A stretch of 56,482 nt of DNA, the filler included, from Dugesia japonica (lineage: Eukaryota): assembly GCA_001938525.1 (NCBI GenBank). It is 5 parts of 5 records of this genome, joined end to end, with 100 filler letters (N's around TTAATTAATTAA, not from the genome) between each part and the next. Parts side by side here need not be neighbours in the genome. Positions count along the whole stretch, not along the records: positions 1 to 12,003 come from MQRL01343073.1; 4 more parts are not named here. One strand, given 5' to 3'. Made by a program: the position numbers and the translations under genes. Under the pieces are notes generated by a model. The model was not told the origin of the DNA, did no database searches, and was given only the letters and a program-made list of their open reading frames with translations. Positions 120 through 56,220 of the stretch are shown here, piece by piece. Positions within the stretch are counted from its first letter, which is position 1. Every line of letters starts with the position of its first letter.

Positions 120-3100
120 AACTTTTTCTGTTGTTTTGATGTTTTTTAATTAATTTTAAATATGTGTTTTTCGCTTGTACTGGTATACTTTGTTTACAAC
201 TTGATTTTGGTTTCATTTTCTCAATTAGTCCTGGTTAACTACCAATTACTGGTAGCAAAGGTTCAATTTTATCCTTAATTATTTCGATAGCTGGTAGTTT
301 GCTCATGTCAAATGTTGCTATCAGTCTACTTCGGTTTATTATTATGAGTGTTTGTTTAATCAAATATGTAATCGCGATTGCAATTCTTGTGGATGATGGA
401 CCTCCTGCAATTAATCCATCTACTGCTTGTTCCATTTAACTTTTCAATATATCTTTTGTTCCTTTCAAAGCAGGTAATTTTTTAATTAATGGTTCCAATA
501 TTCAAGAAATTTGTTCAGAATTTTCCGTTAATTTTGTACTTCCAATCTACATCTTTAATTCTGGATATATTTTTAATAAAATTCAATGTATTCGTTTTTC
601 CGTTGTCGTTTCTTCTGATTCCCTTTGTTCTAACAATTCTTGTGATACATCTGTTAGTTGCTTATTTTGCCTCACGTTTCTCTTTGATACCTTTGAACAA
701 CCAAAAATAGCAAATGCTGCCTTCTTAGAGAAATAAATAGCGTTTAGCTAAATGAAAAGGAACAATAACAGGTCTGTGATGCCCTTAGATGTTTGGGGCC
801 GAACGTGCGCTACAATGGCCGTAACAGCGAGTTTAATTCCTAGCTAAAAATCGCTGGGTAACCTGCTTAATCACTGTCGTGTCAGGAATAATGGATTGAA
901 ATTATTCCACTTGAACGAAGAATTCCTAGTAAGTGCAAGTCACTAGCTTGCGCTGATTACGTCCCTGCCCTTTGTACACACCGTCCGTCGCTACTACCGA
1001 TTGATTGATTTGAAATTCCATTGCTAGTTGATGATCCCCATAAGTTAGATAATCTTTCTCAAAATCTCCTATCCATGAATGTTTCCGCATCTCTTGTCAT
1101 TTATTTTTGAAATTCATTTTCCGTTGATTCTTCTTCAGTTTTTACATTTTGTAATCTTTCTTCTGTCACTACGTCTGATACATTCATTTCATCTACCATT
1201 TCATCTGCAAATGTTTGTAACGCGAGTGATATTGGTAGTTCTTCATCGATATCCACTTCTTTTGAATTTCAATTTAGAGATGCTTCAATCTTTTGACTTC
1301 TCGCTCCTCTTTCTTTTTGACGTTTTACTTGAGTTATCAAGACTTCGTCATTTTCTTGAGTTTCTGTTCCTTTTTCTTCACTCTCTGTACAAGATGAACT
1401 TCCCGATACTCGTATTGCTGTTTTTGCGGAAATTATTGATTGAGTTGTCCAGACCTTGGTGGAACGTTGTTCAGCCGTAAATCTAGGCTTTTCTGCTAAT
1501 ACTTTTGTAGTTGGTTTCTTCTTCAACAATTCTTTACCCACCACTGGATGTATATATATTTTATTTGGATGCCTCACTTGCACATCCAATGTTCCAATCA
1601 TATCTTTATTTAATAATACCTGATTATTAAAAATAAGTGAATATGGCGGATTGAAAAGCAATTTATTCTTTAATTGTTCCACTGTTTCAAAAACCATTAT
1701 TACTACTCTTGTTTATTGACCTCTTGATTCAATTATTCTGAGAGTAAACTTGAGAAGCTTTTCTTCTTCTATCTCTCAATTTAGCTATTTAGAATTTATA
1801 ATTTTAAATTGCTCCGGCCTCAAATTACATTCCTCTTTTAATCTTGATATTTAATAAGTTAATTCTCTTAACTCTTTTATCGATAAATCGCTGCTGATTA
1901 GTTGATCCAATAATTGTTGCAGTTCTGGTTTTGGAACATTTTCTTATTTAATGATGATTGCATATTGTTGTATTAAACTTTGCATGTTTCCAATATTGTG
2001 TTTGTTTCTTGTTGCTGTTGCTGCTATTGATTTACACGGTTGAATTATTATTGGACACAATTCTTCGCTCGATTAATCTTCTGATCTAGATATTAGTTGA
2101 GGTAGTATTACTGCTATCGTTTCTCGTATATTAATATCTAATTCGTCTATATGTATTTGGTACGTGTAGATAAATTTCATCGATATACAACTGAATCGTT
2201 TTTCTATATAATGTTTCTTTTGGTCTTTTCTTGGTATACGGATTTCTTTCTTGATTATCTGCTAAAAACACGTAAACATCCATCATCAATCCTGGCCAAA
2301 TACCTAAATCTTTAACTGAGTTCTCCTCATTTTCCTCAGCGATCTCTTCCCCACAATATATAACGATAACTTCTCTTTGAGTTGCTAATCCAATTGCCTT
2401 TCCTCTTGGCATTTGCTTGTTAATATACTTAAGTATTTCATTTATTAATTTCTCCCATGTTGTAGTGGTTTTAATCTTAAATTCCTTCTCTGATTCATCT
2501 GGGAAATATATTGTAACATTTAATGATTGCTTTGGTATGTTTTTAGTATTTATTCCCACCAATGTATTAACTAATTCACAGAACATTTTTCTTACAATTA
2601 ATTTCAATTGATTTAATTGATTTATTACTTCTTCTATCTTTAAATTTTGCATTTGTTTATAATTTTCCATTATAACCATTCCTACCTTGGTTAATGTCAA
2701 TCTATATGTTGTTTGGTTTCTGGTATTGAAATTGATGTTTGACTGTCATAATTATTATATACCATAACGTTTTTCTTATACTCTCCGTCTAATGATCTCA
2801 TGCTCTGTTTTGTTTTTCGAAGATGTAGATGTGACAGTACTGAGCCTTTAATAAAAACAATCTCTCGCTTTCAAATAATGCCACTTCAGTCGCACCACCA
2901 GGCTTTAATCTATAGATGTAAATGTGCTCGTTTACCGCTTCTTTATTAAGAATTCTAACTGGTGAACAAATTATATAATGTTCAAGTGATTTTGGCCATT
3001 TTAACCTATTCAATGCTTTTACTAATGCTCCCACCATTGTATTCTTTAATGCTAATTTTCGAGGAATATTTCGGTATCCAAATCGATGATTGTATTTAGA

Positions 3101-5910
3101 TATTTGTTCTTCCATCAAATAAACCATATTCATACAATTGTGTGCGGGTTTTATGGCTTCCATCGCACTAAGTCTATAATTCTCCGTAGTTGACACTTCT
3201 AAAATTTCTTTTTCATATTCATCGATAATATACTTCCATTGTAATTTAGTTGTCACATCTATATGTCCTGGCTCTGTTAATTTTACAATATGATTCATTA
3301 TGGACCAATAAGCTTTTCGATCAATCTCATATTTTCCTTTTCTAGTTCTTTTCATTATTGTTTCGATATGTTCCCTCGTTTGTGATTGACATTTTATTGA
3401 TTTATTCATCGTGTCGTTTGTTACAACTTGATTGATCGCCATTTCCGCTCCTTGTTTTGTATTATCATCATTGTTTACTGAATTCTTTGATACTTTTGGT
3501 TTTACATCTTTTTCTGTAGTTACTCTTTTAGGTGGTTTCTTTTGTCTGTTCAATAAAGTTTATGCTCTCATCGTATGCTTAATAGAATTCTTTTTCAAAG
3601 ATTCAATTATTTTATTTATTGTTTAATACTCAAAATGCATGAACGCTGGTTGTTTAGTTTGAAATAGTCTATCACTTTCTAACAACTTTAAAAACTGCGT
3701 TTTTCCTAGTTGATTTCCATGTACCGAAATGTGTTCTTTAAGATTATTCTGATCAATAACTCTTGATGATGAACATAATACATATTCGTGTAATGGTTTC
3801 GGCCATTGCAGTTTATTTATCGCTGTTATCAACTATTCAACTGTTAGTGTTTTAATTTCAATTTTTCTAATTTAAATTTGAAATCCACATGGTATAGATT
3901 TGGTTTCATCATTACTGGTTGCGTATACGTATCTCTTGATTGATGGCCCCGCCACCTTTGGATTGTCTGTAATCAATCTTTTCAACGGCTCCATTATCAT
4001 GATTTTGTAATACTCAGGATTAGTTTCTGTCATCAATTCCACTTCATACTCTTCCGCTTGAGTCTTCCCATTTATTTTGATAACTGAATCTACATCCTTT
4101 GATTCTACGAATTCAATAAATGGATTCATTATTTTCAAATATGTTCTTCGCTTAATTTCATCTCTCAAATCTTCAGCAAGTTCTAGTTTTTCTTCTTTCT
4201 GTCGTCGAATTGCGAGATGATTTTCCAACGACTTATCATCTAAGGTCTTCTTGGAACGTATCATATTAAAATGTCTAGGATTAGAATTCGTCATTCCTCT
4301 TGCTCTCAACCTATCCTGAGCAATTTGTTGTTCTTTCAATTGTTGCTGCAGATACTCTTGCTCTTGTTTCAATATTTCAAACGTTTTTTGCTCCTGATTT
4401 TGAGTATATTGTAACATATTTATTTGATGCTGAGTTTTGGCTCTAATACTATTTATTTCCTGCTTTAATGCTTTATTTTGCTGTCTTATTCTTTCAATTG
4501 CTGGACATAAATTTGATTTAGCATTAAATTAGTATAGTTTGATTTATTACCGTCATTTCTGAAGCTATTTCTACTAATATGTCCCGACTTATTACATATA
4601 TAACATACCGGTGAATTTTCTTGGAAGCAATGTTCTGCACTATGTCGGAGTTTCTGAAAAATTGTGGAATTGTTCATTGTTTTTACTGGCGGTCTAGATT
4701 TGCATAATCTTACTCGATTTCCAATTTTCCCACAATTTTTACAAGACATATTTGTTGATTTCTAGTTCACTTGTTAGTTGTTATTATTATTCGATTGAAA
4801 ATTGTTCGTTTGTAATTTCTTTTTCCCAGGTGATAGTGACTTTAATAATGGCTAGGGTCTTTGTATGAAATCAGATACCTTCAGAGTATCTTTAGTCTGT
4901 TCATTTTGCTCTTCTATTTGAAACACTTTACCAACTTTTGGTTGAGGAACATCAACATTGTGACATACTCTTGCTGAATTTTTAGCCAACTCTACTTTTT
5001 ACGGTTGAGTATAATGCACATGTCTCTTTACATCTGCATTTCTCAACCCTTTTATAAATGCTCCAATTATAACTCCTTCATTAATATTATCTCCCATAGC
5101 TATTTTCCCAGGTCTTTGCATTTCAGCCGCAAATGCTTGAAATGATTCATCTTTATGCTGTCATCTGTTCATAAAATCTTGCTTCTCCTGAACTTGTATA
5201 GCAGGTGCTTTAAAAATATCTAATAACAACGTTTTAGCTCCTTCCTACGTTTTCACTTCTTTATCTTTCTCAGTGGCTTTATCCCAATAAATAGTTTTAT
5301 TACCTCTAACTAAATACAGGGGTTAACGCTCTGCTGCTGTTTCATCGCTCCAGCAACATGTGTTGATATGAATTTCATAGTTTGTGATGAAATCGAGTAT
5401 TTTATTTGGATCTCCGTCATATTTATCACCACTGAAATCAGTTTTCCATTCTTTGAGTTTATCGTCCATATCCAATTCATGTTGTCTACTATTTGATGAC
5501 ATTTTATTTTATTCTTTGATTTCGTCTTGATTGCTTAAATTTTCTGTTTCGCTCTGTGATTCCGATATTGGTAGAAAATGCGATACAGATTCTGGAATAT
5601 TTGCTTTATTGGTTATTAAATTATCACAATATTTGCTATCAGTTATATTTTTTTCTACTATCTGATTTTGATTTTCAATTTTTGACTCTGTTTCTTTATT
5701 TTCTTTTGATTCTGACGATTCCCTTGTTATTGTTGAAGGAAATCAGTTAGGTGATTGATTTGTTTCTGAGGATATTGGCTTTTTAGATGTCCTTGATTCT
5801 TTTCTTGTAAGTGATGATGCTCTTTGTGCTTTTGCTTTGTGCTCTTTTCTACTTCAAACAGTAGATCTCGTATAATATCTGGGCTTTTCTAAATCCTCAA
5901 TGGCTATCGT
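120..5910 (-). pseudogene. gag: Decayed Gag-containing polyprotein (~1800 codons): N-terminal low-complexity region, retrotransposon Gag capsid, 3 CCHC knuckles, coiled coil, duplicated ~170-aa module, 2 ubiquitin-like domains, acidic region, helical C-terminus
   Basis: Manual translation gives capsid DKYDGDPNKILDFITNYEIHINTCCWSDE...QEKQDFMNR*QHKDESFQAFAAEMQR...AFIKGLRN (~5440-5040; candidate ATG at 5502). Knuckles CKNCGKIGNRVRLC / QKLRHSAEHC / CYICNKSGHISRNS (4749-4486). ORFs 4417-3872, 3832-3623 and 3553-2798 share one frame. The reading continues through 2700-2131, 1697-1269 and 435-235 with stops and frameshifts. Confidence 0.8.
721..1011 (+). rRNA. 18S rRNA: 18S rRNA 3'-region fragment (~290 bp pseudogene)
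   Basis: Universal SSU motifs CTTCTTAGAG, AATAACAGGTCTGTGATGCCCTTAGATG, GAATTCCTAGTAAG and GATTACGTCCCTGCCCTTTGTACACACCG(T)CCGTCGCTACTACCGATTGA, with substitutions at conserved positions. Truncated at both ends. Confidence 0.95.
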
Positions 5911-7747
5911 AGTATAACAATTGTATTGTTCTCTTTAATCTGTAATATAATATTATACTGTCCTTTTCCCTAAAATATAAAATAAAAGCCTTTTGGCCTA
6001 TGAATATTAATTAACAATAAATAATCAATTAGCCTTAATCTTAACTTATTTATTTTTACTATCTCCTCTATTCAGTCTTTAATGTTACAATTAATGCTTA
6101 TTTCCTAGTTTTTAAGACGATACTATCTTTTATGTAAAAATCTACTTAACTCTCATAATTACATCCTACACCTATCATTTTATTATTTTTCAAAAATATT
6201 TAATCTATGTTTACATCTTATGTTATCTATTTCCCTAATAAATGCTAAAATGTTTTTAATTTAACTCAATCTTTTTAGCTGGCGCTTATTCAATTTATTA
6301 TACTAAAATTTTATCTATCGTTTTAATTTATTTATTTATTTTCTCATATTTTATATCGCACTCTGATTATTACAAAATTTATTACATTATCTCTATTTTG
6401 TTTTGCTTCTAATTTTACTTTTTATTTGTCAAGATAATATTTCAAAATTTCTATTCTTCTTCTATTATTCTATTATTCTAAAACTTTTGCGGTCAATTAA
6501 GATTCCTCGGATCTCGTTTTGGGAAGATCCCATCCCAGATTTGAGCAGACATTTCTCAAATCTTAAAAACCCTATACGAACTTCGAGCAGTAAATCCGTA
6601 AGGGAGAACTACTTGCAGTCTAATACGCCAACCGAACTGCTTGGATTGTCAGTCCAACAAAAAAAATATCGCCCACTCACTACTGCTGGTGCATATCATT
6701 GTTCACATTACAAACACTTTCTTCCGGCCTCAAAAGATGAATTCGAGAGAATTTCGAGTTCCCACGCTGCTTATGCGCGGCGGCGCAGCTCACAGTAAAA
6801 CTCCAAAGATACACTTACTGTCAAAACAAAAACATTTTTACCTCGAGGTAGCTTTTCATAAGTCTCAATTGTTTCGTCAATCTTCGTCATTAGACAGCCA
6901 TTCCAGCTTTCCTCATAAAAGATGATCAATCTTTAACATGGTTCATGTTGGTGATTCTATAGTTAACATCTTGTATCTCATAGGTCTTACTGTTTCAAAA
7001 TCGCTCCCATCTCCGTTTATTAAATTTACCAGTATTGATAAAATTTATTCTACCTGTGCTGACTGTCCAATACCCTTCCTGTACTACCTGACTAAGTGTG
7101 ATTTCGATAAAACAATAAAATTAAAATCTTCAAAACTAAAATTTCTTCCAATCTTCCGTTTCCTCATCTTTATAAATATTCCAAAAATTCTCTCAAACAA
7201 ACAAAAAAAGAAACTTATGTTTCTTGTAAATACAAAAGCTTCTTCCTGCAGCACCAAACTCTTCTGAAATTTATCTTTTTAAAAACACAGACCTTCTTTA
7301 TCTTTACCATTTAAATTCAAAATTACGCAATTGCTCTACTTAATATATGATTCTAAAACATATTTCTTAAACTAACAATCTTCATTTTTCAAAGTGCAAC
7401 ATTTTTTAAATTCTCAATTATTTTGTAATCTTCAACTTGTTTGCGATACAAAGAAGCTTCTGTTGAATATTCATTTAACTTTTCTAATTTTCTGTTCCTC
7501 AACTTTTTATTTTTATTTCATGATTTTAATTATTTCCCTTTTTTGTTACAATTTTTTATTAGCAAAATTATATATCTTTTATTTATCATTTTTTCTTTAA
7601 GCCAGTATAACCTTTCTTCATATGCCAGAATATTTTCCTTTAATTTACTTATTACTTATTGCTCCACATCACCTCATCATACTATTAAGTTATCAAAGGC
7701 TCATTTTACATTTTTTATAAATAACTCTTATTTTCACGTTTTATTTA

Positions 7748-8630
7748 TTAGGTTGTCACATATGAAATGTTCGATTACGTAATAGACAATAAAATCAATA
7801 AAAGTCCAATAAAATCAAATTTTATTTTATTATAATAATCACCATAGGATTTTACACCTTTTTGCCATCTACAAACTACTTTTAAAATACCATTAGCAAA
7901 AATATTTTTTTCTCTGGAGTCTATCAATTCAAAAATGGCCATTTTGACATTTTCGCGATCAGCAATGATTTTTTAAAAACCAAAAATTATCAAAATGCTT
8001 AAAAAAATGATAATCTGTTGGAGATAAGTCGGGCAAATATGGTGGATGTGGCAAGGTTTCAATTTTTAAGTCTGTATACTTTTGCAAAGTCTTCTTTGCC
8101 ACATGTGGTCGAGCATTATCATGCAAGAGGATGATTCCTTTCTTATTGACCAATGAAGGCTGTTTAATGCATAATGTTTTGTGCATTAATTCAATTTCAG
8201 AATAGTATTTGTCTGAGTTAATAGTTTTACCTTCTTCTAACAAAAACAAATCTATGACTCCAGCTATAGACCACCAAACTGTCAGCATTGTCTTTTCGGG
8301 TGTAAATCCGGTTTAGAACAGTGTAAAGGAGATTGGTCGGCATCTAATTATTGTGCAAGACGTCTACAATTTTGATGAATAACCCGTTTTTGATCACAAG
8401 TGACATTGCGATCTAAAAAAGATTCCAATTTATTTCGATCCAGCAGCATTTGGCAAATTTTAAATCTATGCGATTTTTTGGAATTATTCAATAAATGAGG
8501 AACCCATTGGTCCATCTTTCTTTTCTTTCCAATGCCTTTCAAATGACGGAAAATTGTTTGACGACTAACGTCTAACGTTTTACTAAGTTGTCGTACTGAT
8601 TGACTAGTGTTTAGTTCCACTTTACGTTTT
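7748..8630 (-). mobile_element. 5'-truncated mariner (DD34D, cecropia/Hsmar1-like) transposase pseudogene
   Basis: Motifs WVPHLL, VTCDQKR, HDNARPH and HPPYLPDLSPTDYHFFKH, with 34 residues between the 2nd and 3rd Asp. Right TIR TA-TTAGGTTGTCACATATGAAATG at 7746-7770. Confidence 0.93.
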
Positions 8631-8987
8631 ATATTTATTATATTTATTCTTTTCTTTATGATCTATCCTTTTTGGATTTAATATTAATTTATCTTATTAA
8701 AGCATTTATTCAATTCAAATTTTTTCTATCACCTAAATTAACATTTATTATCAAGTATTTCAAATTCCGCAAATTTAATTTTCCCCAAAAGTTTATCTGT
8801 TCATCAAATAAAAATTGTCATTTTTATCATTTCATTACTTTATTTTTAGAGATTACCGCCGGTCAAATTTTATTATCAAGTCCTAATTATTAATTAAGAT
8901 TTTTCCTAATACTGCTTAAACATTTTATTAAGTTTTAAATATTATTTAAAATCGTCAATTAATAATAATATATTCGAATAAAAATTC

Positions 8988-9492
8988 ATGACGAGTGGCC
9001 TGCTTTTTATCTCATAACCACCTTTTATCTTTCATGATCAAGTGAGTTGAAACTTAGTTATCAAGCAATTCGCCACTTAATATTTTACGAAATTATTTAT
9101 AATAGGTATCCAAAGATATTAACTATTAATAAAAGGTATTCAATGGTGTTTAATATTAATCAAAAGGTATTCAGTTGTCATCGATTAAAATATATTAAAC
9201 TGCAGCGAATTTATGCAGTTTAATTTTAATTGCTGCATAGTCAAATTTATCTTAATCGTTATCAAGATTCTATGTTATCCCTCATTTATTTCTAATTGTT
9301 ATCATTATTTAAGATTCCTCGTAATACCCTCAGTGCTCGACTCAAGTTTCGGTATTATTTTAAAATCCTTTATTAATAATATAAATAAAATATGATCATT
9401 AATTATGACGAGTCACTTGTCTCTTCATCTCATACTAACTTTTGTCTTTTGTGACCAATTAGCCAGGAATTATAAATCAAGTGATTCATCAT
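8988..9492. repeat. Two diverged ~90-bp direct repeats (8988-9080, 9405-9492), each a fold-back hairpin, in the element leader
   Basis: Both start ATGACGAGT and share TCTCATA, CTTTT(A/G)TCTTT and ATCAAG. The arms of each copy are self-complementary. Confidence 0.7.
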
Positions 9493-10031
9493 TAAATGCT
9501 AGGGACTGCATTGATTCTATCAAAATGTATTTCAATTCAAGGTGAACATTCAAAGTTGAAAAATAATTTTATTCTCGTTTTTAATTATGGTTCACCAACC
9601 ATATCTTTACATTTAAGATAAAACAATTTTATTTCAACACTAATCAATTTAAGCTTTGTTAGCCAATAAATAATTTCAATGTAAGTTTAAGCTGAATCGA
9701 TTTTACCAGAAATAAATCTTTATCAATAAACATTACCTTCAACATTATTTCAAAGTTAATTCATTTTCAATAATCAAATATTCTATTATCTATTTTATTT
9801 ATCATTTAACCACAGCTATACCCTCAACATTTATCACTTTCAACAAAAGTTTCATCACTACTTTATTGACAATATAGTTTTGTCAATAAAATTTTCATAC
9901 GAATAAATTTATTAACGTTAATAAAATTTTCAATAATTTTAAAAGATTATTCCACCTTATTTAACTTTTGATTTAAATAATGAACAGCAAAACAACAAAC
10001 AAAATCTTTACGAAGATAATAATCTATCTCT

Positions 10032-10050
10032 ATTCTTGCTGAGCCCCCCA
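10032..10050 (-). promoter_or_regulatory. Primer-binding site, tRNA-Pro-like
   Basis: Minus strand TGGGGGGCTCAGCAAGAAT resembles the tRNA-Pro PBS (TGGGGGCTC...) and lies 3 nt from the LTR end. Confidence 0.65.
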
Positions 10051-10053
10051 AAA

Positions 10054-11940
10054 TACTAGGATTTTAACGAAATTAAAAAGATGTAATTTCTGTAGGTGCA
10101 CCCTCGTGAAAACCACAAGCATTTTAACGTCGTGTGTCCCTTACATGCTCTCGGCTTGGTTCCAGTGACTCCTTTTTACAGGAGAGTTGTAATCGCTCCT
10201 TTAGTTTGGGTCCAGCAGACTAGAGTGTTACTCCATCTTAAATAATTTGGAGTTACAATTTCTTTTATGATACTCTTTATCCTTTAACAATTTTTGAATT
10301 TAGAGTAATTGTGATACTGATTTTTGCAAAAAAATGAGAAAGATAGAACACAGATTATTCTCGATTTTATAATTAATAACTTATTTATTTAATTATTTAT
10401 TTATTTTGACACTCATTATGTTTTACATAAAATTTGAGTTTTATACATCTCATAAAAACCAGTCAAAATGTTCAATGGCGTTGTCTATAATAATGATTTT
10501 ATTTAACCTTAGTTCATCATAGCGTGCAATTCGCAGAAAATTCATTTATTTTTCTTTCTCATTCGTGTGATTTTATTTACTTTTAATTGTTTAGGGTTGA
10601 TTTAAATGCAAAGTCGCTATTTTATGATGCCATGGGGTGTAATTAAGCCGATATATTCCTTTCTAATAAAGTTTTTATATAACAACTGATAATTCATCAA
10701 ACTTTAAAGAAAAACTAGTAAACAACATTTTAATTCAAAATTTATTTACAAATCCAAAATATTTATTTATACACAATTCTATCTTGACATTTTTCGGCTG
10801 CTTTAATAATTTCCTTGGATTTGTTTTCGTTATAAATGTTTTTCTATTATCACTTTTATCGATTTCGGATACACTTTCTACTGTGAGATCATTCGCATTA
10901 ATTACTAGAATTTCATCTTTGACATCAATTAAATCTTTACTTTTCAATTATCATTTTATTTATTAAAGATATTTATAATCGTAATAAAATAATTTAAATA
11001 CATAATATGAAAATCATTACAAATTTGTTGTCGAAAACTGAATTTGTATCGATTTATTCTGATCCTTAGCTTTAATCAAGACATAGAATATAAATTTAAA
11101 TTTTGATTGAATTTTTAATTTTTAATGAGATTTTATCAACTCCCAAGTTAGACAATTTTAATTAATTAATTATTAATCTAATTTTCAATTTACAATAGAA
11201 TAAATACTTCTATCCCTTTCTTTCGTTGATTAATTTTCCTTTTAGTAATAATTTTTTTTTTGATTTAATTTCCACCGACAGAATGTACCCTCTTTTCAAA
11301 ATATATTTCTTTTCATCTTTTTTATTTCCTCAAAATATAATTTTGCAATCAATGGATATCTTTTTTATATTTTCAAAATATAATTTTGTGAATGCATCGC
11401 TCGATTTTATATCGAGTCGATGCTAACACACCGTGCACACCAAAACAAAAAAAACAAACACTGATTGAGGTAATCACGTGGCTTTTTTCCAGGTTATGTC
11501 GAACAAAAATATTATTATTTTGTTTTTTTAATTTTTGCCAAATCTAGACTATGAGAAAACTATCTCATTATTCTAGATGCAGGCCAAGGAGAAACTCGTT
11601 TCAGCAAAAATAAAAAAAATAATTTATTGATTATTATATTTATTTTTATTATATGTTATTGTTGTTTATATATATTATTATAATAAAATGTTATAATTAA
11701 ATCTTATAATAAATTTATATATCTAAATAAAATAAATACAAATCTAAATATTCTTAAAAATAATTATAATAATGATTAAATTACTACTACATGTAATAAT
11801 ATAACTCATCAAACAATTTTTGTTTTTCAAGCTCATTCCAAAACTAATAAATCTGTACAACCATAACTCAAAATCATCACACACTTTCATACCTTTATCT
11901 CCTTGACCTTCTCAATTTAATAAATACTGGTGTTCTAGCA
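10054..11940 (-). repeat. 5' LTR (~1.89 kb) of the large element
   Basis: Short terminal inverted repeat on the + strand TACTAG(10054)...CTAGCA(11940). Bounded by the PBS on one side and (ATT)n on the other. Contains a candidate promoter. Confidence 0.62.
11394..11480 (-). promoter_or_regulatory. Candidate LTR promoter: TATAAAA (11411-11405) in the loop of a hairpin, with upstream CAAT-like motif and CACGTG E-box
   Basis: GCATCGCTCGAT-TTTAT-ATCGAGTCGATGC hairpin; minus-strand CTCAATCAG at 11461-11469; CACGTG at 11475-11480. Orientation matches the element. Confidence 0.4.
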
Positions 11941-11943
11941 CAA

Positions 11944-11944
<1 letters not shown>

Positions 11945-12003
<59 letters not shown>
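11945..12003. repeat. (ATT)n microsatellite
   Basis: Direct read; abuts the 5' LTR in the same contig. Confidence 0.97.
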
Positions 12004-12103: not shown

Positions 12104-12369
12104 TTGGGGTATGAGGATAGGGGTATGGAAAATCTGAAAAAATGATGTTAACGCATAAGGTATGTATGGCTGAGTATAACTGTTAGTACTAATCAACCAT
12201 AATAAGAATAATAAAAAGAATAATTATAAAAGAAATTGTTAGATATAATATTTAAACATATTTGTTTAAATATTATTGATTTATTTAATTTGAATAAACT
12301 TTGAAAATGTCTAATTTTGAAATACAAAATCTAACTGAAATATATAAAATTTTTAAAATATGACATGTT

Positions 12370-15300
12370 TGAAAGCGTTTGGATCCACTGTCTACTAGAT
12401 ACTGACGCAGGAATAAATATCTTAAACGAGAAATGTTTGAAAGAGTTGGGACAAAAACGCATGAATAAGAGTGATTTAAGATTACGCTGCGCAAATAATA
12501 ATTCACTGAAAACGTTAGGGAATGTATCGCTGAAGGTACAATAAGAAAATAGAACAAGACAACTAACCTTAAGAGGTGATGCCAGAAATGATTACGGAGA
12601 TGGAATTTTTAAATAGTTTTGTGTTCAAACCGACCAACAATAACAAGGACGACCAAGAAAAGGAGGAAAACCGTTATGTGTTATTTAGAGACAAGATTTA
12701 AGAGACAAGTGAATTCAGAAGAACCATGGCAGAGAGCAAGCAATACCATTGAGGGGGGAAAAGATAGTCATCCAAAAGAAATATGCAAACAAATGCGGGA
12801 GGCTTTTATGGCGGATAAATATGATATATACCGGACAAATTTAATCAAACATAAGATAAATACAACAGGAGGACCTATCAACGTAAGACCATACAGGCAA
12901 CCGATGAATTTGGAAAAGAAAATAAATGAAACCAAAGAGAATCTTTTTGAAAACGGAATAATTTGAAAATGCAATTCACAGTGGAACACACCATTGGTAT
13001 AAGTGTGGAAAAAGAGAAAAAAGATATCAGGTTATGGGTGGATTTCAGGAGGATAAACGTTATAACGGAAAGACAGGCATTCCCGATGCCAAATATTGAG
13101 GAGATGTTGGACGTGTTGAGCGAAGCGACACTTTTTAGTTCAATTGACTTAGGGAATGCATATTATCAAGTAGAACTCGAGGAAGAATCCCAAGAGAAAA
13201 TAGCTTTTTCAACCNNNNNNNNNNNNNNNNNNNNNNNNNNNNNNNNNNNNNNNNNNNNNNNNNNNNNNNNNNNNNNNNNNNNNNNNNNNNTGAAAGTGAC
13301 AAGAGGAATACAAGAAGCAATAGCATACCTGGACGATATATTGATCTTTTCGAAGTCGAAAGAAGAACACTACGGCATATTAGGAAATATACTAGATTGA
13401 GTGATAGAAGCAAAGCTTAGAATTAACCGGGGAAAAGGCAATTTTATGAAAAGGGAAATAAAGTTTTTAGGACATATAATTGAGAAAAGCAGGATACAAA
13501 CAGATCCAATCAAGATTGAGGCCATTAAAGCGTTTGGCGAACCAAAATGCGTGAAACAATTATGTAGCTTTCTAGGAATATGTAATTATTACAGCAAAGT
13601 CGTCAAGGACTATAAAGCATATGATAAATAGCGATATTGGTAATAATTAAATAGTAAAATTGAAGATCCATTCATAAANAGTAGTCANTAATGAATCATC
13701 ATTCGCAATAACTATTGATTTTGTTAGAGAAAACATTAATAAAAATGATAATAACAACAATCAAAAGATTGAGGCCATTAAAGCGTATGGTTTTAACGTA
13801 GCTTTCTAGAAATAAGTAATTATTACAGAAAATTTATCAAGGACTATTCGTTGAAGGTAAGGAAGCTGGAGTAATTATGCAGTGAGGCAAGGAAAACAAA
13901 GCTGATTTGGTCGGTGGATTTATCGGAAGTTTTTGAAGGGTTAAAGACGGCATTAACATCATCACCAGTGTTAAGATTCCTCGACATGAAATGAGAATTC
14001 ATCGTGGACATAGATGAAAAGTTCAACACAATAGGGGTAGTCTTGTCACAAAAAGATGACAGAGGTAAGGAAAAAGTAATTACATACGAGTTGCATGCAA
14101 TGTCCAGACATGAAACGAGGTATTGCATAACCAGGAAAGAATTATTAGATTTCTATTACTTCTGCGTACACTTCAAACCCTATTTATATGGAAAACGGTT
14201 TACGCTAAGGACAGACCACAAGGCGATCACTTATATGCTTAGCATTAAGAAGCTGATAATGAGCCAATTCCAAACATGGATTAACTTTCTAAGCATTCTG
14301 GATTTCAAATTGGAGTATAGTAAGGGGACACAGAACAGAAACGCGGACACTTTGAGCAGGTTACAGTGTGATAGATGCACCTAATGTTAGATGGAACACG
14401 TAGACTCCAAATCAGAAAATCCTAAAACAAGACTGTTATTAGAACAGGACTATGTGGCGGAAATCAAAACGACTGATAAAACGTGACTAAAGGATGAGGA
14501 GATCGATCAGAAAATCCGGGAGATCCATAAATCTTTGTGCCACACAGAAGCGGAAAAACAGAGGGTTACATAAACGCCAGATTCGCGGAATACAAGTTAA
14601 GAGCAAGGAGAGAAAATTAATAAGAACATGTGTAGGGTACCAGAAAGTAAAAACAGATACGTCGAAGACTAAAGAAGAAACATATTGGTCGGAAAGGTAT
14701 CAACCTTCCGAAGTAGTATTTGTGGACGTTTGTGATTCGTTAAGGGTAACAGAAGGAGGCAAGAAATATATATTGGGAATTATTGACCAGTGTACAAAAT
14801 ACATAAGGCTATTGCTATAAGTAGGCAAGATCAGGTAACAATAAGGGAAAACTTATGGGAGGAGTGGATCCTAAAATTCGGATGTCCAAGAGTGATGAGA
14901 TCGGATTGCAGCAAAGTATTTGAGGCTGAACAGATGAGAGAGTTCGCAAAAAGCTTAGATATAATGTGGAAGATGTCGAGCCCATACCATCACAAAACCA
15001 ATGGACAGATAGAGCGCATATTCCAAACGGTACGAGAACTAATAAAGACTATAATACGAGAGAGAAGAACAGCAAAATGGGCTAAATTGGTGTCAGAAAT
15101 TGAATTTGCATTGAATGCAACTAAACAAAGGACAAAACAAATCAGTCCGACAGAGAAGACATTCGGACGACAGATTAGTAGAGAAGGATGGAGGGGAGAA
15201 AGACAAAAAGACAATACATGGGGGACAAGAGATGATCGGAAAGATAAAGCCAGGATGAGGAGACCATTTGGAGTGGGTGACGAAGTACTCACACAGAAAG

Positions 15301-15610
15301 AAATAAGAGACAAAGGACAAGACCGATTCGAGGGACCATACAAGGTAGGGAGACGAGTGCATGAGAGGCAATATATATTGGTGGGACAGGATGGGCGTAA
15401 AATAACGTGAAACGTGGAGAAACTTAGATCGTTCATAAAGAAAAGGGATGTGAGGAAAAGTTAAAATTTTATCTAAAAATTAACGTTTGTTTTAAACATT
15501 GAAAAATAGAAAAAGTAAGGTGGAAGTAAAATTTAAAAGTTGTAAGTAGTTAAAACTTACTGAATTGTTGAATTACTTAATTTCTTCGATATTTTTATTT
15601 TGAGACATTG
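12370..15610 (+). mobile_element. pol: Ty3/gypsy pol pseudogene (PR-RT-RH-IN) with PPT and start of 3' LTR; gag missing
   Basis: PR LLDTDAGINIL. RT LWVDFRRIN, SSIDLGNAYYQV, AYLDDILIFS. RH RFTLRTDHKA, NADTLSR. IN SSPYHHKTNGQIER, FEGPYKV. PPT AAGAAAAGGGATG then TGAGGAAA at 15451. Confidence 0.92.
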
Positions 15611-21270: not shown

Positions 21271-21640
21271 AATTANAAAATAAAAATAAATAAATAATAT
21301 CGCAAAAATAATAATAAATAATATACATAAATATACAAAATAATAAATAATAAACGTAAATAATAAATAACATTTATAAATAAACAGTTTTATTTATTAA
21401 CCAAACAAAACCGATTTTGTATAGTCTTGAAGAAAAATCAACAACCAATAATTGCTCTAAACAGCTATTAAACAACAAAATAATCAATAATTTCCACCTG
21501 ACTATGAATTTATATTACAGAACATGTAAATATTAACTATACAATTTTCAAATTAAAATTAATTGTTTTATTAGAAAGAAANNNNNNNNNNNNNNNNNNN
21601 NNNNNNNNNNNNNNNNNNNNNNNNNNNNAAAGAAAGAAGA

Positions 21641-37334: not shown

Positions 37335-37434
37335 NNNNNNNNNNNNNNNNNNNNNNNNNNNNNNNNNNNNNNNNNNNNTTAATTAATTAANNNNNNNNNN
37401 NNNNNNNNNNNNNNNNNNNNNNNNNNNNNNNNNN

Positions 37435-37800
37435 CTGCAGATGAAGATAGAAGAAAAGATTGGAGTAACAGGATACCAGAGATTGAATACATGATGAATG
37501 CGACAAGGCAAAAGACATGGGAGATATCACCAGCAGAATTAGTATTTGCTAGGAGAATTCACAGAGAACAATGGTTTGACAGCAAAAAAGATAACAAGGA
37601 GTTAATGGAAAAAACACCTATAAAAAGACAATTTCAAGTGGAAGACGAAATATTGATTAAACTACAAACTAGAACAAAAGACAATGAAAGATACGCTGCT
37701 CCATACAAGATCACGGATAAGGTACATGAGAGAAGATATCGTATACGAGATACAAAGGGGAAAGAGCTAGAAAAAAACGTAGAAAAGCTTAAAAAATTTA
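37435..37800 (+). mobile_element. Ty3/gypsy integrase C-terminal fragment
   Basis: IPEIEYMMNATRQKTWEISPAELVFAR..RYAAPYKITDKVHERRY..KNVEKLKKF, homologous to 15100-15430. Confidence 0.85.
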
Positions 37801-39438
37801 GCCACCATTTTGAATGGGCTGGTAGCATTTTCATAAAAAATGAAAGTTTGCATTCCTATTTTACTTTTTAAATTTCCATATAAATCTGAAAACACTATTT
37901 TCATACTACTTGATCAGCGGGGTGAGAGAACTTATTTGAACATATGCAAACATATTTTCGATGAAACAATGTATACGCAGTTTTTGATGCTGATTTCAAT
38001 GGCGCTAATATATTTTAGTATAAATTATTATTTCATTATAATTATAGTAATCCAGTACACTACATCTCTACCTGTGAGAACAAAGTATTTTAAGAAATAG
38101 ATTATTTAAACACTGTATAGGCAGTTCTTAATTTCCGGAGGAATGGTATCAATTTCGAATTAATCCGATCAAAAATGGAAGCAGGGCAAATTTTTAGTCT
38201 TACATCTTTAATAACTTTTACTATCACGTTTGACTGGACTGAAGACTGCATCATGAGATCTTTCATGTTATTTCGAATCCAACAATACCATGAGGATAAA
38301 GTCAAATAAATTATCAAATTTGAACCTATAACAACCGTGTATATTTAGCCTCAATAAGCAAGCTCATTTGTCACACTAAATAAATTTTATTCAATAAGTA
38401 AACAAACAAAGAATTTCATTAATAGAATCTATTAGAAAACTTTTGGTGCGTCAAAATCGAAAAAGGTTTGGGAAACACTGATTACGTGAATTAAAAAGTA
38501 AGTTTAAAATGTTTGTATAAATATTAAAAAAATATGAATATACCACCTCATATAATGTAATCCTTCTTTATAAATATGGCACAATGGGCACTTTCTCAAT
38601 TTAGGAATATTGGCTTCATCCTCATTGTTATGGATAACTTTGAATTCATTTGTTGAATTTGCTAAAATATACTAATTATAAAAAGGAGTTTTTTACAAAT
38701 ATTTAATTTACATTTAGATATTTCATTTAGTTTTAACACAAATTTTGTCTGGGAGCACATAAAATAATTATACACGACGTCTAACTGTAATATAATATTG
38801 AAATTAAAAAGAATTGTTAAAATATTACGAATGAGATACGATCAGAGATTTTGAATTAGTGCATAAATAACGATTTGTTCATTTTGTAACATTTGCCTAA
38901 AAGATTATCAATTTCTCAGAAGTAAGCAGTAAGTTTAAGAAGTGAGTAGAATAATTTTTATTGAGAAGTTCTTCTAATAAAATATTTTTGGAATTTACCT
39001 TTTATAAGAGAAGCATAAAAAATTAGTATTTTAACACATTAAATTTTAACACATTATTATTTTTATTATTATTAAAATGTTTTTATAGATATGAACTTTC
39101 ACATCCTTATACAAACAATACAATTTAATAACCGTAGGAATTTTATTGGCATTATCTTTGATATTGTTATTGAAATGTTTTATATAAGGTGTGAAAGTCT
39201 GAGCCCGTGTGGACACTCAAGTATTGTCGTACATGTTGTTTATTATAATTCATTTTTCTATAAACACTTCATATAAATAACTAATATTATTATCGATTCA
39301 AAGATAATTTATGTCTCTACACAATAAGAATATATCAGTTATTCACGATGTAATAGAATTTATTCTATATGTGCTTTAAAGTATTATGAAAAATCGGCAA
39401 GGACTTTTAGATCAATGCGATACATTTATTTAACAATA

Positions 39439-42665: not shown

Positions 42666-45059
42666 GTTTATTGCATATTTACCTGATTTAATTGTTGATA
42701 ATAAAAGTATCTTTGTAAATAATAATAATTATAATTATAATAATAATAATTTCTCTGCTATTAATAATATATAAGTAAAGTTATAGCAAATATAATAGTC
42801 AGCTTATAATAAATTTAAAAATTAATGATATTGTTACATCATGATTTTTTTGATACTGGAGCTAAAATCAGTGCTATTAAATGTGAATTATTTAAAAGAA
42901 TAGGAAACTTTTCAATAACTAATTCTGATATAAATGTCAAATGTGAAAATAATAGTTCTTTAAAAATTGTAGGAAAATTATATTTAGATGTAAAGCTTAA
43001 TAAAAAAATCGAGAACATTTGTTTTTATGTTGCTAAAGAAAATTACTCGCCTGTTATTTTTGGAATACACCTATTGAATACATTTAATATAAAACTCACC
43101 ATCATTGAAATATATAATGAAGAATCTGTTAATTTAATTAAATTTAAACCCAAAATATTAGAAATTGAAAATATTAAAGATGAAATGAAATTGATAATTT
43201 TAAAAAAAATATGAAAGCATTATAATGAAACATAAATAGTATATTGGGAAAACTAACATTGGTAAACATGAAAAAATAACTAATAGTAAACCAATTGCAA
43301 TTAATCTTAGGCGCCNGCTTTATAATTTAATATATAAGATTGAGTAAAATATTAAAGAAATGAAAATAAATTGGATTATAAGTAAATGTAACTCACCTTG
43401 GAATGCTTTTCTGGTTTCGTAAAAAATGAAACAATAATAAAATAAAACTTCTTAGATTATAGGTTGCTAAATGAAGTTACAGAAAGACCAATTTGTCCTA
43501 TTCCAAACACTGATGAAATGATATGGGTATTTTATATGGAGTCAAATATTTTACCTGCATATCATGGTAATACGTACTATCAAGTAGAATTAACAGATGA
43601 TTCAAAATGTAAAACTGCTTTTTCGACAAAAGGTGCACAATATTATTTTAACAGATTGCTATTTGGAATTGCAGCTGCTCCTGCTATTTTTCAGAAATTG
43701 ATGAATACGGTTTTAGGTCGCCTAAACAAGATGATATTTTACCTAGTTGATATTTTAATTTTTTCCGAAACTATTAAATAACACTATAAGGGAATTGATG
43801 ATACTAAAAAACGTATAAAAGAAGCCCGTTTAAAAATAAGTTCATCTAAATGTCATTTCATGGGAAACGAGATAAAATTTCTAGATAATATTATTAATTC
43901 AAATTGAATTCATTCTAATAACGAAAAAATTGAAGCAATATTTTATTTTGAAACCCGAAAATGTGTTAAAATGTTAATTATTTTATGAAATTTATAAAAG
44001 ATTACACAAAGTATTCAAAATGTTTAGAAAAATATACTGGACAGATTAGTGCCAAAGTTCCTTTCACAATTTGAAGGCTAAACTAACAAAAGCTCCAGTT
44101 TTAGCCTTTCTGAATTTTTCTAAAAAATTAATATTGAATACTAATGTCAGCTTTGATAGTATAGGTGCAGTTTTAAGTCAAATTGATAACGATGGTAAAA
44201 AAAGATATTTTGCTTTTGGATCTAAAGCCATAAGTAAACACGAGCTGGATTATTACATAAGAAATTCCATTCATACAATATTACAAGATAAAACGAATAA
44301 AGATTAAATCCACGTTTGTTTCACAATTTATCAATTTTTTCTATAAGTATTCAAACTTTATTTTACTTTCAAGTTCTTAAATTTCTTTATTTTTGGTTTC
44401 CTTGACAGTTCATGTTTTAATATCATTAGTTTTCATGAAAGTTTGAGGTTTTACTTCTTTTGTATATATCTTGTAAATCTGAATTTAGGTCTTTCATTTG
44501 TAATTTAAACGTTGGAGTTGATATTTCACTTGAGATTTCTTTATCGAGTTCTGAACATTTGCCTTATTTATTCAGTAATTGAAACTCTTGTGATAATTCA
44601 ATTTACTTAATCACTTTATTAATCCTACATTAATAATCACTTTTTAAATATTTTCACACATTTGCATTGTCTTTATGATTCATTCATGATTTAAGTATTT
44701 TACAATCATTAGTAAATGTTGGAGATGATAACCGTTTATTATTATGATTTGAAAGTTTTTCATATCATAATCCTTACAAAATAATTTTCTTAATTTTCAT
44801 TATTTCAACACATTAATAGGCTACAAGAAAATAAACTTCGTCTAAGGAATTGTTTCTTAACGTGAGCGATAGAACGATCCAGGGAAGCGTGATCGATGTT
44901 GAGTCAAATTTAGAGGCGGTTAACACATAATGAAGATACGAGGATATTGATAACCCTTTCTTGCATATTTTATCTGTTAAGTAACCTTTTAAAACCCTAT
45001 TATAAAAATTAATGGACAAAATGCTTGTTCTAATCTATCGACAATCTATTCCGCCTACC

Positions 45060-52072: not shown

Positions 52073-55000
52073 TATCCCCCTTCTTAAGAATCTTTCTTAG
52101 TTTTTCCACATTTTTCTAATCAATGTCCATTTCCTCCTTTTTCCGCATAGCGTCTTTCGTGAATTTCTGAATTATTTGATAAGGTCCTTCAAATCTGTCT
52201 TAACTTTTATTTTTTGTTTCTACCTTTATAAGTACAGTATCGTACACTTTGAATTCTCTTTTAATAATGACGTTTGAAGAGTTTTCTTTAGTTCTTTCTG
52301 AAACGTCTGACTAATACCACTTTTTTTCTGTTTATTTTCTATCCAAAAACTATCTTAGCCGGGCTCTTTCCAGTTGTCTTCTGCTTTGTTTTGTTCATTG
52401 TAAATTCTATTTCTGGTTAAAGATCTGCCCAATCTGTTGAATTTCTTTCCTGAAGGTTTGCATTAATCAAATGTTGAATTGTCCTGAACTGTCTTTCAAT
52501 TTGTCCGTTAGCATTATGATGATATGGACTTGAAAAGCAAAGTTTAATATCTAGCTTCTGTGCAAACTCTCTCATAACTCTGGATTCAAACGCTTTTCCG
52601 CAATCTAATCTTATTTCTCTTGGACATCCAAGCCTCAGTATTTACTTTTCAAAAAATCTTTTCGTATCGTTTCCTCGTTTTGTCTAGGCATTGCAATAAG
52701 GATCAGATATTTACTGTAATGTTCAATTATTCCAAGAATGTATTTTCCCGTCCACTTGTTTCTCGCATAGGCCCACATATATCTGTGAATATCACTTCAA
52801 ATAAATTGGTAGTTTCTAAACTCTTTGTCTTCTCTTTAGTTGTTGTTGTCACTATTTTGGTCTTCTGACAACTTTCACAACTTCGAACTATCTTCTGTAT
52901 TTGACTTCACAAATTCTTTGCAATATATTTGTTTTTCATATATTCGTACACCTTTTCAACTCCTGCATGACATAATAATTTATGTATTTCTTCTATTTTT
53001 TCACGTAGTTTGTCATCCGGAAGTTTCATTTTCTTGATTAAATCTGTTTTCTTAGAACTGTTTAAATTATCTTCTTTTTCCTTTTCAATTATATTTAGTA
53101 TTCTCGTTTTAATCTTCTATTTCTTGACCTCTTCATGTGACATTTGACATTATACACACACCTCACATCTTAGTCTAGATAACGTACCTGCATTAGCATG
53201 TGGAATTCTTTTTCTATATTCCAAAACCATGTCTAAACTGATCAGATAATTATTCCATGCCTGGAATTGCAATGTAATTGGTTTCTTCGTCATCATCATG
53301 AAAGATAGAGCTTTGTGATCGGTACTTAGAGTAAATCTTCTACCATACAAGTAATGTTTGAAATGGATACAGAAATAATAAACAGCCAATAACTCATTTC
53401 GTGTAATGCAGTATCCCTTTTCATGAGTTGTCATTGAGTGTGATCCATAGGCAACAACTCTTTCTCTTTCTTCTTTATCTCTCTGTGACAATACTGCTCC
53501 AATCGTATCAAAACTGGCATATGTATCTAATATAAATTCTTTGTTTATGTCCATGAAACACAATATTGGTGCAGTCATGAAAGAATTTTTTAGACCCTTA
53601 AAAGTATCGTTTATTTCATCTGTCCATTTTAATAACTTGTTGCTTGGTCCGCTACACAACTGCTCTAATATCTTTGATTTTCTAGCATAGTTTTCTATAA
53701 ATTTTCTGAAATAATTACAAATTCCCAAGAAACTTCGTAACTTCTTCACACAGTTAGGTTTGCCAAATGTTCTTATAGCTTCTATTTTAGACGGATCAGT
53801 TGTATTTAACACTTACACCATCCCTGCTAATTATGTGTCCAAGAACTTGATTTAACTTTGAAGAAACTGACACTTTTCCGGATTAATTATTAGACCAGCC
53901 TTCATTATTTCCGTCAATAATCTTTCAATTACTTCAAAGTTTGTATATTTATTGTTCGTAAATATCAGTATGTCATCAAGATAAACCATGGCTCCATTGA
54001 TTCTGCTTACTAATTTTGTCATTATCTCTTCAAATGTCCCTGTTGCCGCTGCGATGCCAAATGGCATTCTATTAAAACAATATTGTCAGTGCTTCTTTAA
54101 AAACGTCGTTTTTTCTTGAGATTCAACTTCGAGCTCTACCTGATATTATGCATGTCCCAAATCTATTGAACTGAAATATTTGGCTCAATCTAACTTGTCA
54201 AGCATATTATCAATATTAGGCATAAGAAAGGCTTGTCTTTTCGTTACTGCATTCAATTGTCTAAAATCCAAGCATATTCCTATGTCTTTATTTTAATTTT
54301 TCCAAACACATATCATTTGTGGTATTCCGTGGAGAGTTGCATTTCCTGATAAAACTATTTTTGAAAAGGGTTTGGATAGCTTCTTCAATTTCAGATTCTA
54401 AGTTTAATGGTTGTCTATACGGTTTTACATTGATTAGTTCACTACTTAAGATTATTTTGTTTCTTGTCAGATGTGTGCGTCCTACATACCATTTATATGT
54501 CATAAAAGTATCTTCTTTACTTTCAATTATTTTCAATAACCGCTGATCTTCTTTAATCTAAAAAATATTTAAAGTTCTTGTCAATTGCTCTCCTTTTTTA
54601 ATTTGTCTTCCGAATTTTGCTTCAATATTGCAAATGTAATTTTCGACTTTTTCATTCGTTTTGCTATTGACCTTTTGCATAAGCTGATATCCAAAAATCT
54701 TCTGCATTTCTATTCCTCTTATCAGATCTAGTGTTACTCTTTAAGCAACTAAGAAAGTAATCTCTTTGCAAACTTCATCAATTATCACTCCAATTTTAAC
54801 TTTTCTAACAATCTCAAGTGTATTATTATTTGCACAACGCAATCTTTCATCACTCATTTCTAAATTTACTTCTCGTAGTTAATTAAAACAACTCAAACTC
54901 ATCACGTTAATTCCATTCCCTGCATCTAATAGACATTCTACTTTATTTTCTTGTAACTTAATTTCCCGGTAACACTTGGTCTGCCTATGAATTTATAGTA

Positions 55001-56220
55001 CGAAATATTTGTTTTTTTTCTGCTTCTACTGTTCCAACCCATTCTACTTTTCTATCATCTGCAAAATTTTCTCTTTTTAAGAACCTGTATAATTTTTCTG
55101 TAACTTTTCTTTTACCATCCTACTTTTTAACCCCTTGAGGATAATTGATAACTTCATTTAACAATGCATGGCTCAAACTAACTCTTCTACTGGTGGAGCC
55201 CTGGCATTTGAGTACTGCCTTTTGGAATCACTTTCATATGCTTCTTCATATCCATCGTTTGAACTGGCATCTTTAAATTCAATCGCATGTACTCGATTAT
55301 ATCGGTTTCTTGATCTTTCTGCTGTCATAAATTTCTCACTTGTTCTTTTCACTTTCAAATTTGTGTAACACTCGTCTGCTCTATGACCACCATTACCACA
55401 TCGTTTACACTTTACTTCTTGACATAACCTTCTAATATGACCAACCTTTCCACAACCAAAACATTTAATTGGTTTTTCATTTAGTTAATCTCGACTTATA
55501 TGTCCTGTTTTTTGACAACTCCAGCACTGTACCACTTTTTATCGGAGAATTTGCTTTAGTATGATCGATCTTATGATATAGCCAACATTCGGTATTTTCT
55601 TTTCCTTTCTTTGCTCCACGTGTATATTCACTGTATGATTTACAGGTTTCTGATAATTTTGATTTGTAACTCTTGCGTAACTTCTAACTGCATCAACTCG
55701 ATCTCTGTTTTTNTCTACTCGATCTACCAACGTCATTGTTTCTTCAATTTCTTCTATATTTTCTCTTTTTCGCAAAGTCACTTCTTCTTCAACTTTATTG
55801 TTATCTGAACATTAAACTAGCATTTTGCTACCATTTTTTTTTACAGTAAACTCCTTATTTGTAAAACATTGTTTTAATAACTCTTTGAAATTTTTAAAAT
55901 AAACTTGAATCTCTTCATTTTCACGCCTGTAGTTAATCAAATTTTGAAAATCTTTGATAACATCTTTCTCTTTCTCAAATACCATGCGTAAACGAGCCTG
56001 AAAACCTTCAGCTTTTTTTCAACGTCTTTGCATATTCTTCCAACAAATCTTCATTTAACAAACACGATACTAATCTCTCCTGTTTTTTCAAATTGTTAAT
56101 GTTTTTAACTTCGAAATACGATTCACACTGCTTGATGAATTTCTCAATATCATCTCCTCTGCAAAACACATTTGGCAAAAAACCTCTCTGTAATAGAATT
56201 GGTACTTTCCGCTGCCACCA

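Follow-up and report, generated by a model that had tools for sequence, protein, structure and literature searches.

A predicted ubiquitin/SUMO-like domain without diglycine in a decayed, likely Burro-type LTR retrotransposon of Dugesia japonica

In a 56,482-nucleotide stretch of Dugesia japonica DNA (the window, five joined parts of assembly GCA_001938525.1), we identified a predicted ubiquitin/SUMO-like (beta-grasp) domain of about 87 aa at positions 2263..2523 on the minus strand. The domain (Ubl) has no diGly and is encoded by a decayed LTR retrotransposon of high copy number, likely a Burro-type element. We favour, with moderate confidence, the reading that it is an accessory module of the element's polyprotein and that it probably offers a docking or decoy surface to the ubiquitin/SUMO system of the host. 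The fold prediction draws on a sub-threshold match to Pfam family PF11976, an AlphaFold2 (AF2) model, a structural comparison by VIA-align and the ESM Atlas. Retroelement polyproteins rarely contain Ubl domains, and the stop-free 87-aa sequence is a ready construct for structure determination and pull-down.

The Ubl lies in a stop-to-stop frame of 204 aa (2131..2745, minus strand), a remnant of a longer coding region that has decayed. The first-pass annotation had seen the ubiquitin beta-grasp pattern in a peptide that corresponds to minus-strand positions 2523-2263, read in frame 2745-2131. Pfam PF11976 (Rad60-SLD) aligns with residues 1-85 of the 87 and covers positions 1-72 of the 72 in the profile (E 1.1e-4, 22.4 bits). 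The curated cut-off of this family is 23.8 bits, and all scores fall below it (22.4 and 21.8 bits for the domain, 19.6 for the whole frame). By score the Ubl is not a PF11976 member, and PF11976 is its nearest profile only. Weaker matches over the same residues were to RA_2 (E 0.032) and PI3K_rbd (E 0.16), which we take to be beta-grasp families. As a control, we considered the 89 stop-free, N-free pieces of the window that are at least 66 aa long and lie beyond position 1100. A ubiquitin-type family was matched at E<=0.01 in one of the 89, namely the Ubl. The same set yielded an apparently spurious match to ICAM_N at E 2.5e-4, and thus Pfam scores of this size can be due to chance.

Among 1.84 billion representative proteins, two matched the Ubl at E<=0.001. 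The best is a poly-ubiquitin-like protein with 17 ubiquitin-type stretches (E 2.1e-6); the second, an RCC1/Ig protein (E 3.8e-4), was taken as a chance match. A home-built profile of 16 units of the poly-ubiquitin-like protein gave the Ubl only 3.4 bits (E 9.5, 2256 tiles) and picked out neither it nor a candidate second Ubl at 1553-1772. A phmmer search of the Ubl against the PDB returned no match at E<=10, and a homologue search with the enclosing frame returned none at E<=0.01 (58 candidates).

AF2 was run on a single 98-aa sequence with no alignment and gave a mean pLDDT of 58. The model has strands at residues 8-14 and 20-26, a helix at 31-45, and strands at 49-57, 60-67 and 89-95, an order of elements that is ubiquitin-like, in a low-confidence model. 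The last strand is preceded by an acidic insertion, which forms a loop (residues 68-88) with pLDDT under 50. VIA-align compared the model with 48,161 chains, of which 542 reached Z>=2 (best Z 5.1, rmsd 2.7, 67 residues aligned). Because a Z under 8 may mean merely a common arrangement, and the best here is only 5.1, the weight rests on the uniformity of the matches rather than on the height of Z. Beta-grasp folds account for 47-48 of the best 50 of the 542 (by title or known fold), with 2 undecidable from the title; the types among these 50 include Ubl, SUMO, UBX, PB1, FERM-F0, BILBO and superantigen beta-grasp. In the ESM Atlas, Ubl-named and PF11976 clusters were found at 0.88-0.90, sharing 136-149 of 256 features, where 170 is typical of same-family matches.

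These modest scores could instead reflect an amphipathic beta/alpha stretch of unrelated fold that resembles ubiquitin by chance. The sub-threshold Pfam score, the negative phmmer and poly-ubiquitin-unit searches, the low Z and the Atlas counts below 170 would all be consistent with this. We consider it very improbable, however, as profile, language-model features, predicted element order and fold search agree on one fold, and PMC6431247, in its available part, reports a PF11976 motif at the corresponding position of Burro elements. On balance, the segment 2263-2523 very probably adopts a beta-grasp fold, a prediction with moderate support.

The two checks that the first-pass annotation had proposed and that were run, a Pfam search and an AlphaFold2 prediction, returned a sub-threshold Ubl-type profile match and a beta-grasp prediction, respectively. 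Its beta-grasp Ubl at 2263..2523 is borne out by the PF11976 match over the whole profile, by the AF2 element order and by structural matches dominated by beta-grasp folds. The likeness to ubiquitin that it described is supported for the predicted fold, and the best-matching profile is not ubiquitin but the SUMO-like Rad60-SLD. It had also reported that the C-terminal diGly is missing, and we found no GG in the Ubl or, in this copy, in any of the three frames over about 40 codons after the domain. Its view of an integral, non-conjugatable Ubl is likewise supported for the polyprotein region of an LTR retrotransposon. The role in proteasome, ESCRT or DUB interaction that it offered as inference would still be hypothetical.

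On the minus strand the order of features is gag, zinc knuckles, coil, two repeats, Ubl, candidate second Ubl, acidic stretch, 18S rRNA fragment and a BCL2-looking piece. The Gag capsid-like region (4996..5538, minus strand), translated with X at its several in-frame stops, matches PF03732 (Retrotrans_gag) at E 0.038 and 14.7 bits, short of the 24.1-bit cut-off. Two zinc-knuckle motifs follow (4564..4743, minus strand; zf-CCHC, PF00098, E 7.3e-6 over two stretches); in this copy one ligand of each motif has changed. A Q/E/K-rich predicted coiled coil (4200..4500, minus strand) was recognised by eye, and coiled-coil-type Pfam matches to it are only weak (E>=0.12). Next come, in tandem, repeat unit 1 (3623..4177, minus strand, about 180 aa, with stops) and repeat unit 2 (2861..3355, minus strand, 165 aa), both of no known family. 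Beyond the Ubl, the candidate second Ubl (1553..1772, minus strand) has one in-frame stop and matches UBL_UBAC1 (PF23326) at E 0.013 over 31 residues only. An acidic low-complexity stretch noted by eye (1100..1420, minus strand) continues the same decayed frame with low stop density.

The last piece (130..680, minus strand) is helical, interrupted by several stops and BCL2-like by eye, on the strength of motifs that look like BH1 and BH2. Its position fits the Burro order; it matched no Pfam family at E<=10 and gave no meaningful match in PDB sequences. Between it and the acidic stretch, at about 720-1050 on the plus strand and thus antisense inside the element, sits a diverged eukaryotic fragment of the 3' part of 18S rRNA (RF01960, 91.8 bits). 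Pfam found no MATH, BCL2, Env or Pol match in this element within the window, and downstream of the Ubl, where the window extends for another 2.2 kb, there is no protease. Perfect ATT microsatellites occupy positions 1-68 and 11945-12003, the first of which truncates the element at the edge of the window. Upstream of gag, the stretch 6300-7300 (minus strand) is GC-richer and non-coding and may be the 5' LTR plus leader; it occurs only once in the window, and 5800-8000 gave no Rfam match.

A coding-like frame can be traced on the minus strand between 5742 and 1100; its 1528 codons include 20 stops, where 8.6% would be expected (frames picked for fewest stops, 2850-2746 left out). It changes near 4525, 2850 and 2710, between Gag and Ubl, and again near 2255, after the Ubl. 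The Ubl thus lies about 2 kb beyond the zinc knuckles, with three frame changes and many stops in between. It is outside Gag proper and belongs to the accessory portion of a long coding region; in this copy it is not joined to Gag. The earlier placement inside a Gag polyprotein is supported for the polyprotein region of an LTR retrotransposon and not for Gag itself, to which no open frame leads in this copy. The copy is dead and cannot make a polyprotein.

The element is a high-copy repeat. In public run X1, 940 contigs match 1100-5900 at 80% identity or more (82 at >=99%, 178 at 95-99%, 381 at 90-95% and 299 below 90%), and all 30 of 30 bins are covered. Summed word depth is about 2,000-12,000, compared with 5-10 for near-identical contigs, a depth that is not a true copy number. 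Run X6, which is labelled as another organism, also covers 30/30 bins, with a version that is about 10% different. Near two of the three points where the frame shifts between Gag and Ubl, the length of other copies is different, on contigs none of which spans the stretch singly. These differences suggest that the family has one long ORF that has decayed here, which we favour but do not regard as proven. Raw RNA reads on the stretch (90 of 13.6 million in X9, 7 of 11.6 million in X12) are too few to speak of expression or strand; none is at >=99% identity, and almost none falls on the Ubl.

This layout resembles that of Burro/GYPSM1, giant Ty3/gypsy elements of Dugesiidae planarians that exceed 25 kb and occur in thousands of copies, as described in the available part of PMC6431247. 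According to that text, Burro ORF1 is one frame of 4,873-5,140 aa with retrotrans_gag, two or three CCHC knuckles, an Smc coil and MATH, and with a Ubi2/SUMO-like (PF11976) motif that precedes a BCL2-like motif and so lies between Gag and BCL2 (PMC6431247, 2019). Downstream are Env and then Pol (PR, dUTPase, RT, RH, IN), with LTRs. MATH_TRAF_C precedes the Ubl in Schmidtea mediterranea and is absent from ORF1 in D. tigrina, and decaying Burro fragments are reported in D. japonica (PMC6431247, same sections).

Our element shares with Burro a Retrotrans_gag region (weak here, E 0.038) followed by CCHC knuckles, two in number as in D. tigrina, then a coiled coil and a PF11976-type Ubl downstream of Gag. 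It likewise has a very high copy number and the kind of decay, by stops and frameshifts, that is described for D. japonica copies. The piece after the Ubl would be a candidate counterpart of the Burro BCL2-like motif, by eye only. No MATH domain was detected between knuckles and Ubl, and the giant ORF1 that is continuous in Burro is broken in this copy. The two repeats of about 170 aa and the candidate second Ubl go unmentioned in section 7 of PMC6431247, as available. The comparison is one of layout; Env, Pol and LTRs would lie beyond the left edge of the window. PF11976 in the same position, together with an AT-rich eukaryotic sequence (window GC 18-34%) carrying ATT microsatellites, makes Burro the best reading, and we regard a Burro-type element as likely. 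The type of Ubl and its place in Burro-type elements are already in print, in one sentence, and the layout is known. In the available text of PMC6431247 the Burro Ubl appears as a passing annotation only, one deemed worth experimental work. The literature searched treats it further nowhere else, and ubiquitin, SUMO and Burro have no mention in the accessible part of PMC13524379.

In intact copies, the Ubl would be translated within a long Gag-accessory-Env-Pol polyprotein, if the single polyprotein with Env and Pol downstream follows the Burro layout given in the available part of PMC6431247. It might then stay with Gag or be freed by the element's protease. Conjugation is closed to a Ubl that has no diGly, which would therefore work through binding, as a surface rather than as a tag. 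The most likely role for such a surface would be that of a docking or decoy site for host proteins that bind ubiquitin or SUMO. This role is favoured by the Burro cargo of MATH, BCL2-like and BIR modules, some of which can be separate accessory ORFs (PMC6431247, available part), because these point at ubiquitin and apoptosis pathways. BURRO1 is transcribed once PIWI silencing is lost, as stated in the available part of PMC8532177, which would make the role of the Ubl testable in planarians.

The main rival keeps the fold and the element and makes the Ubl an internal scaffold or folding module that would bind nucleocapsid or RNA of the element itself, or the domains next to it, with no partner in the host ubiquitin system. 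Coronavirus nsp3 Ubl1, an integral viral Ubl that binds nucleocapsid, is a precedent (title of PDB 7wzo, rank 36 in VIA-align), and the Ubl is acidic (15 D/E to 10 K/R) and downstream of the knuckles. Judged by eye, the surface that corresponds to I44 of ubiquitin also has several changed residues. VIA-align, however, shows no preference for viral Ubls, and the MATH, BCL2-like and BIR modules of Burro ORF1 point to host pathways (PMC6431247, available part), so we hold a scaffold role to be unlikely. A further possibility leaves docking or scaffolding aside and concerns the coding unit: the Ubl could belong to a separate accessory ORF starting near 2676-2660, downstream of gag and outside the Gag polyprotein. 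Here it does occupy a 204-codon frame of its own, in which Met codons lie close to the beginning, and separate accessory ORFs are described for some Burro modules. The frame is nevertheless flanked on both sides by sequence of coding-like low stop density, other copies show length differences close to two of the three frame changes, and the Burro PF11976 motif is placed within ORF1 (PMC6431247, available part). We consider a separate ORF improbable.

The predicted docking or decoy Ubl can be compared with other integral Ubls. Rad60/NIP45 SUMO-like domains (PF11976), UBX, PB1 and the Ddi2 UBL are like it in that they have a beta-grasp fold (predicted here), no diGly and a place within a larger protein. 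Identity to these type II structures is only 4-21% in the VIA-align matches, and in contrast to them our Ubl has an acidic insertion, is encoded by a mobile element and scores below the PF11976 cut-off. Coronavirus nsp3 Ubl1/Ubl2 are similarly non-conjugated modules of a viral polyprotein, but nsp3 (7wzo) aligns at Z 3.9 with 8% identity, belongs to an unrelated virus class and has no neighbours in common. Ddi1/Ddi2, which combine a UBL with a retropepsin, also tie a Ubl fold to retroviral-type machinery, and the Ddi2 UBL ranks fourth in VIA-align. Ddi is a host gene, however, and here the 2.2 kb downstream hold no protease.

The two repeats are related to each other (30% identical; local score 208 versus 31.5+-5.2 when shuffled, reached in 0 of 1000 shuffles). 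Repeat unit 2 matched no Pfam family, its best Atlas value was 0.85, and its AF2 model (pLDDT 42) is unusable. PDB sequence searches with the repeats were empty or meaningless, and homologue searches returned nothing at E<=0.01, either with 2801-3559 against longer proteins (900 candidates) or with the two-repeat alignment (270 candidates). The Ubl shows no likeness to the candidate second Ubl (an equal or higher score in 791 of 1000 shuffles) and none above shuffles to the two repeats. The C-terminal halves of both repeats have a helix-then-strands pattern and could be further beta-grasp modules. A more speculative and rather doubtful extension is that up to four such modules (2263-2523, 1772-1553 and both C-terminal halves) stand beside a BCL2 mimic as a poly-ubiquitin/SUMO decoy. 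If true, this decoy array would let an enveloped flatworm retroelement titrate the ubiquitin- or SUMO-dependent silencing and cell-death pathways of host stem cells.

Other mobile elements occur in the window. A decayed mariner-type transposase lies at 7962-8662 on the minus strand (Transposase_1, E 4.5e-13). Decayed gypsy pol fragments at 12335-15407, 37383-37868 and 42819-44304 (plus strand) and at 52420-55484 (minus strand) encode protease, RT, RNase H and integrase and are mutually 33-66% identical (blastp); a zinc knuckle accompanies them at 55176-55484. Those at 12.3-15.4, 42.8-44.3 and 52.4-55.5 kb were rejected as the pol of the Ubl-bearing element, given their other positions or strand beyond gaps. 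After an N gap, a short frame at 21575-21907 (plus strand) has two hydrophobic stretches that look membrane-spanning and is possibly a host exon.
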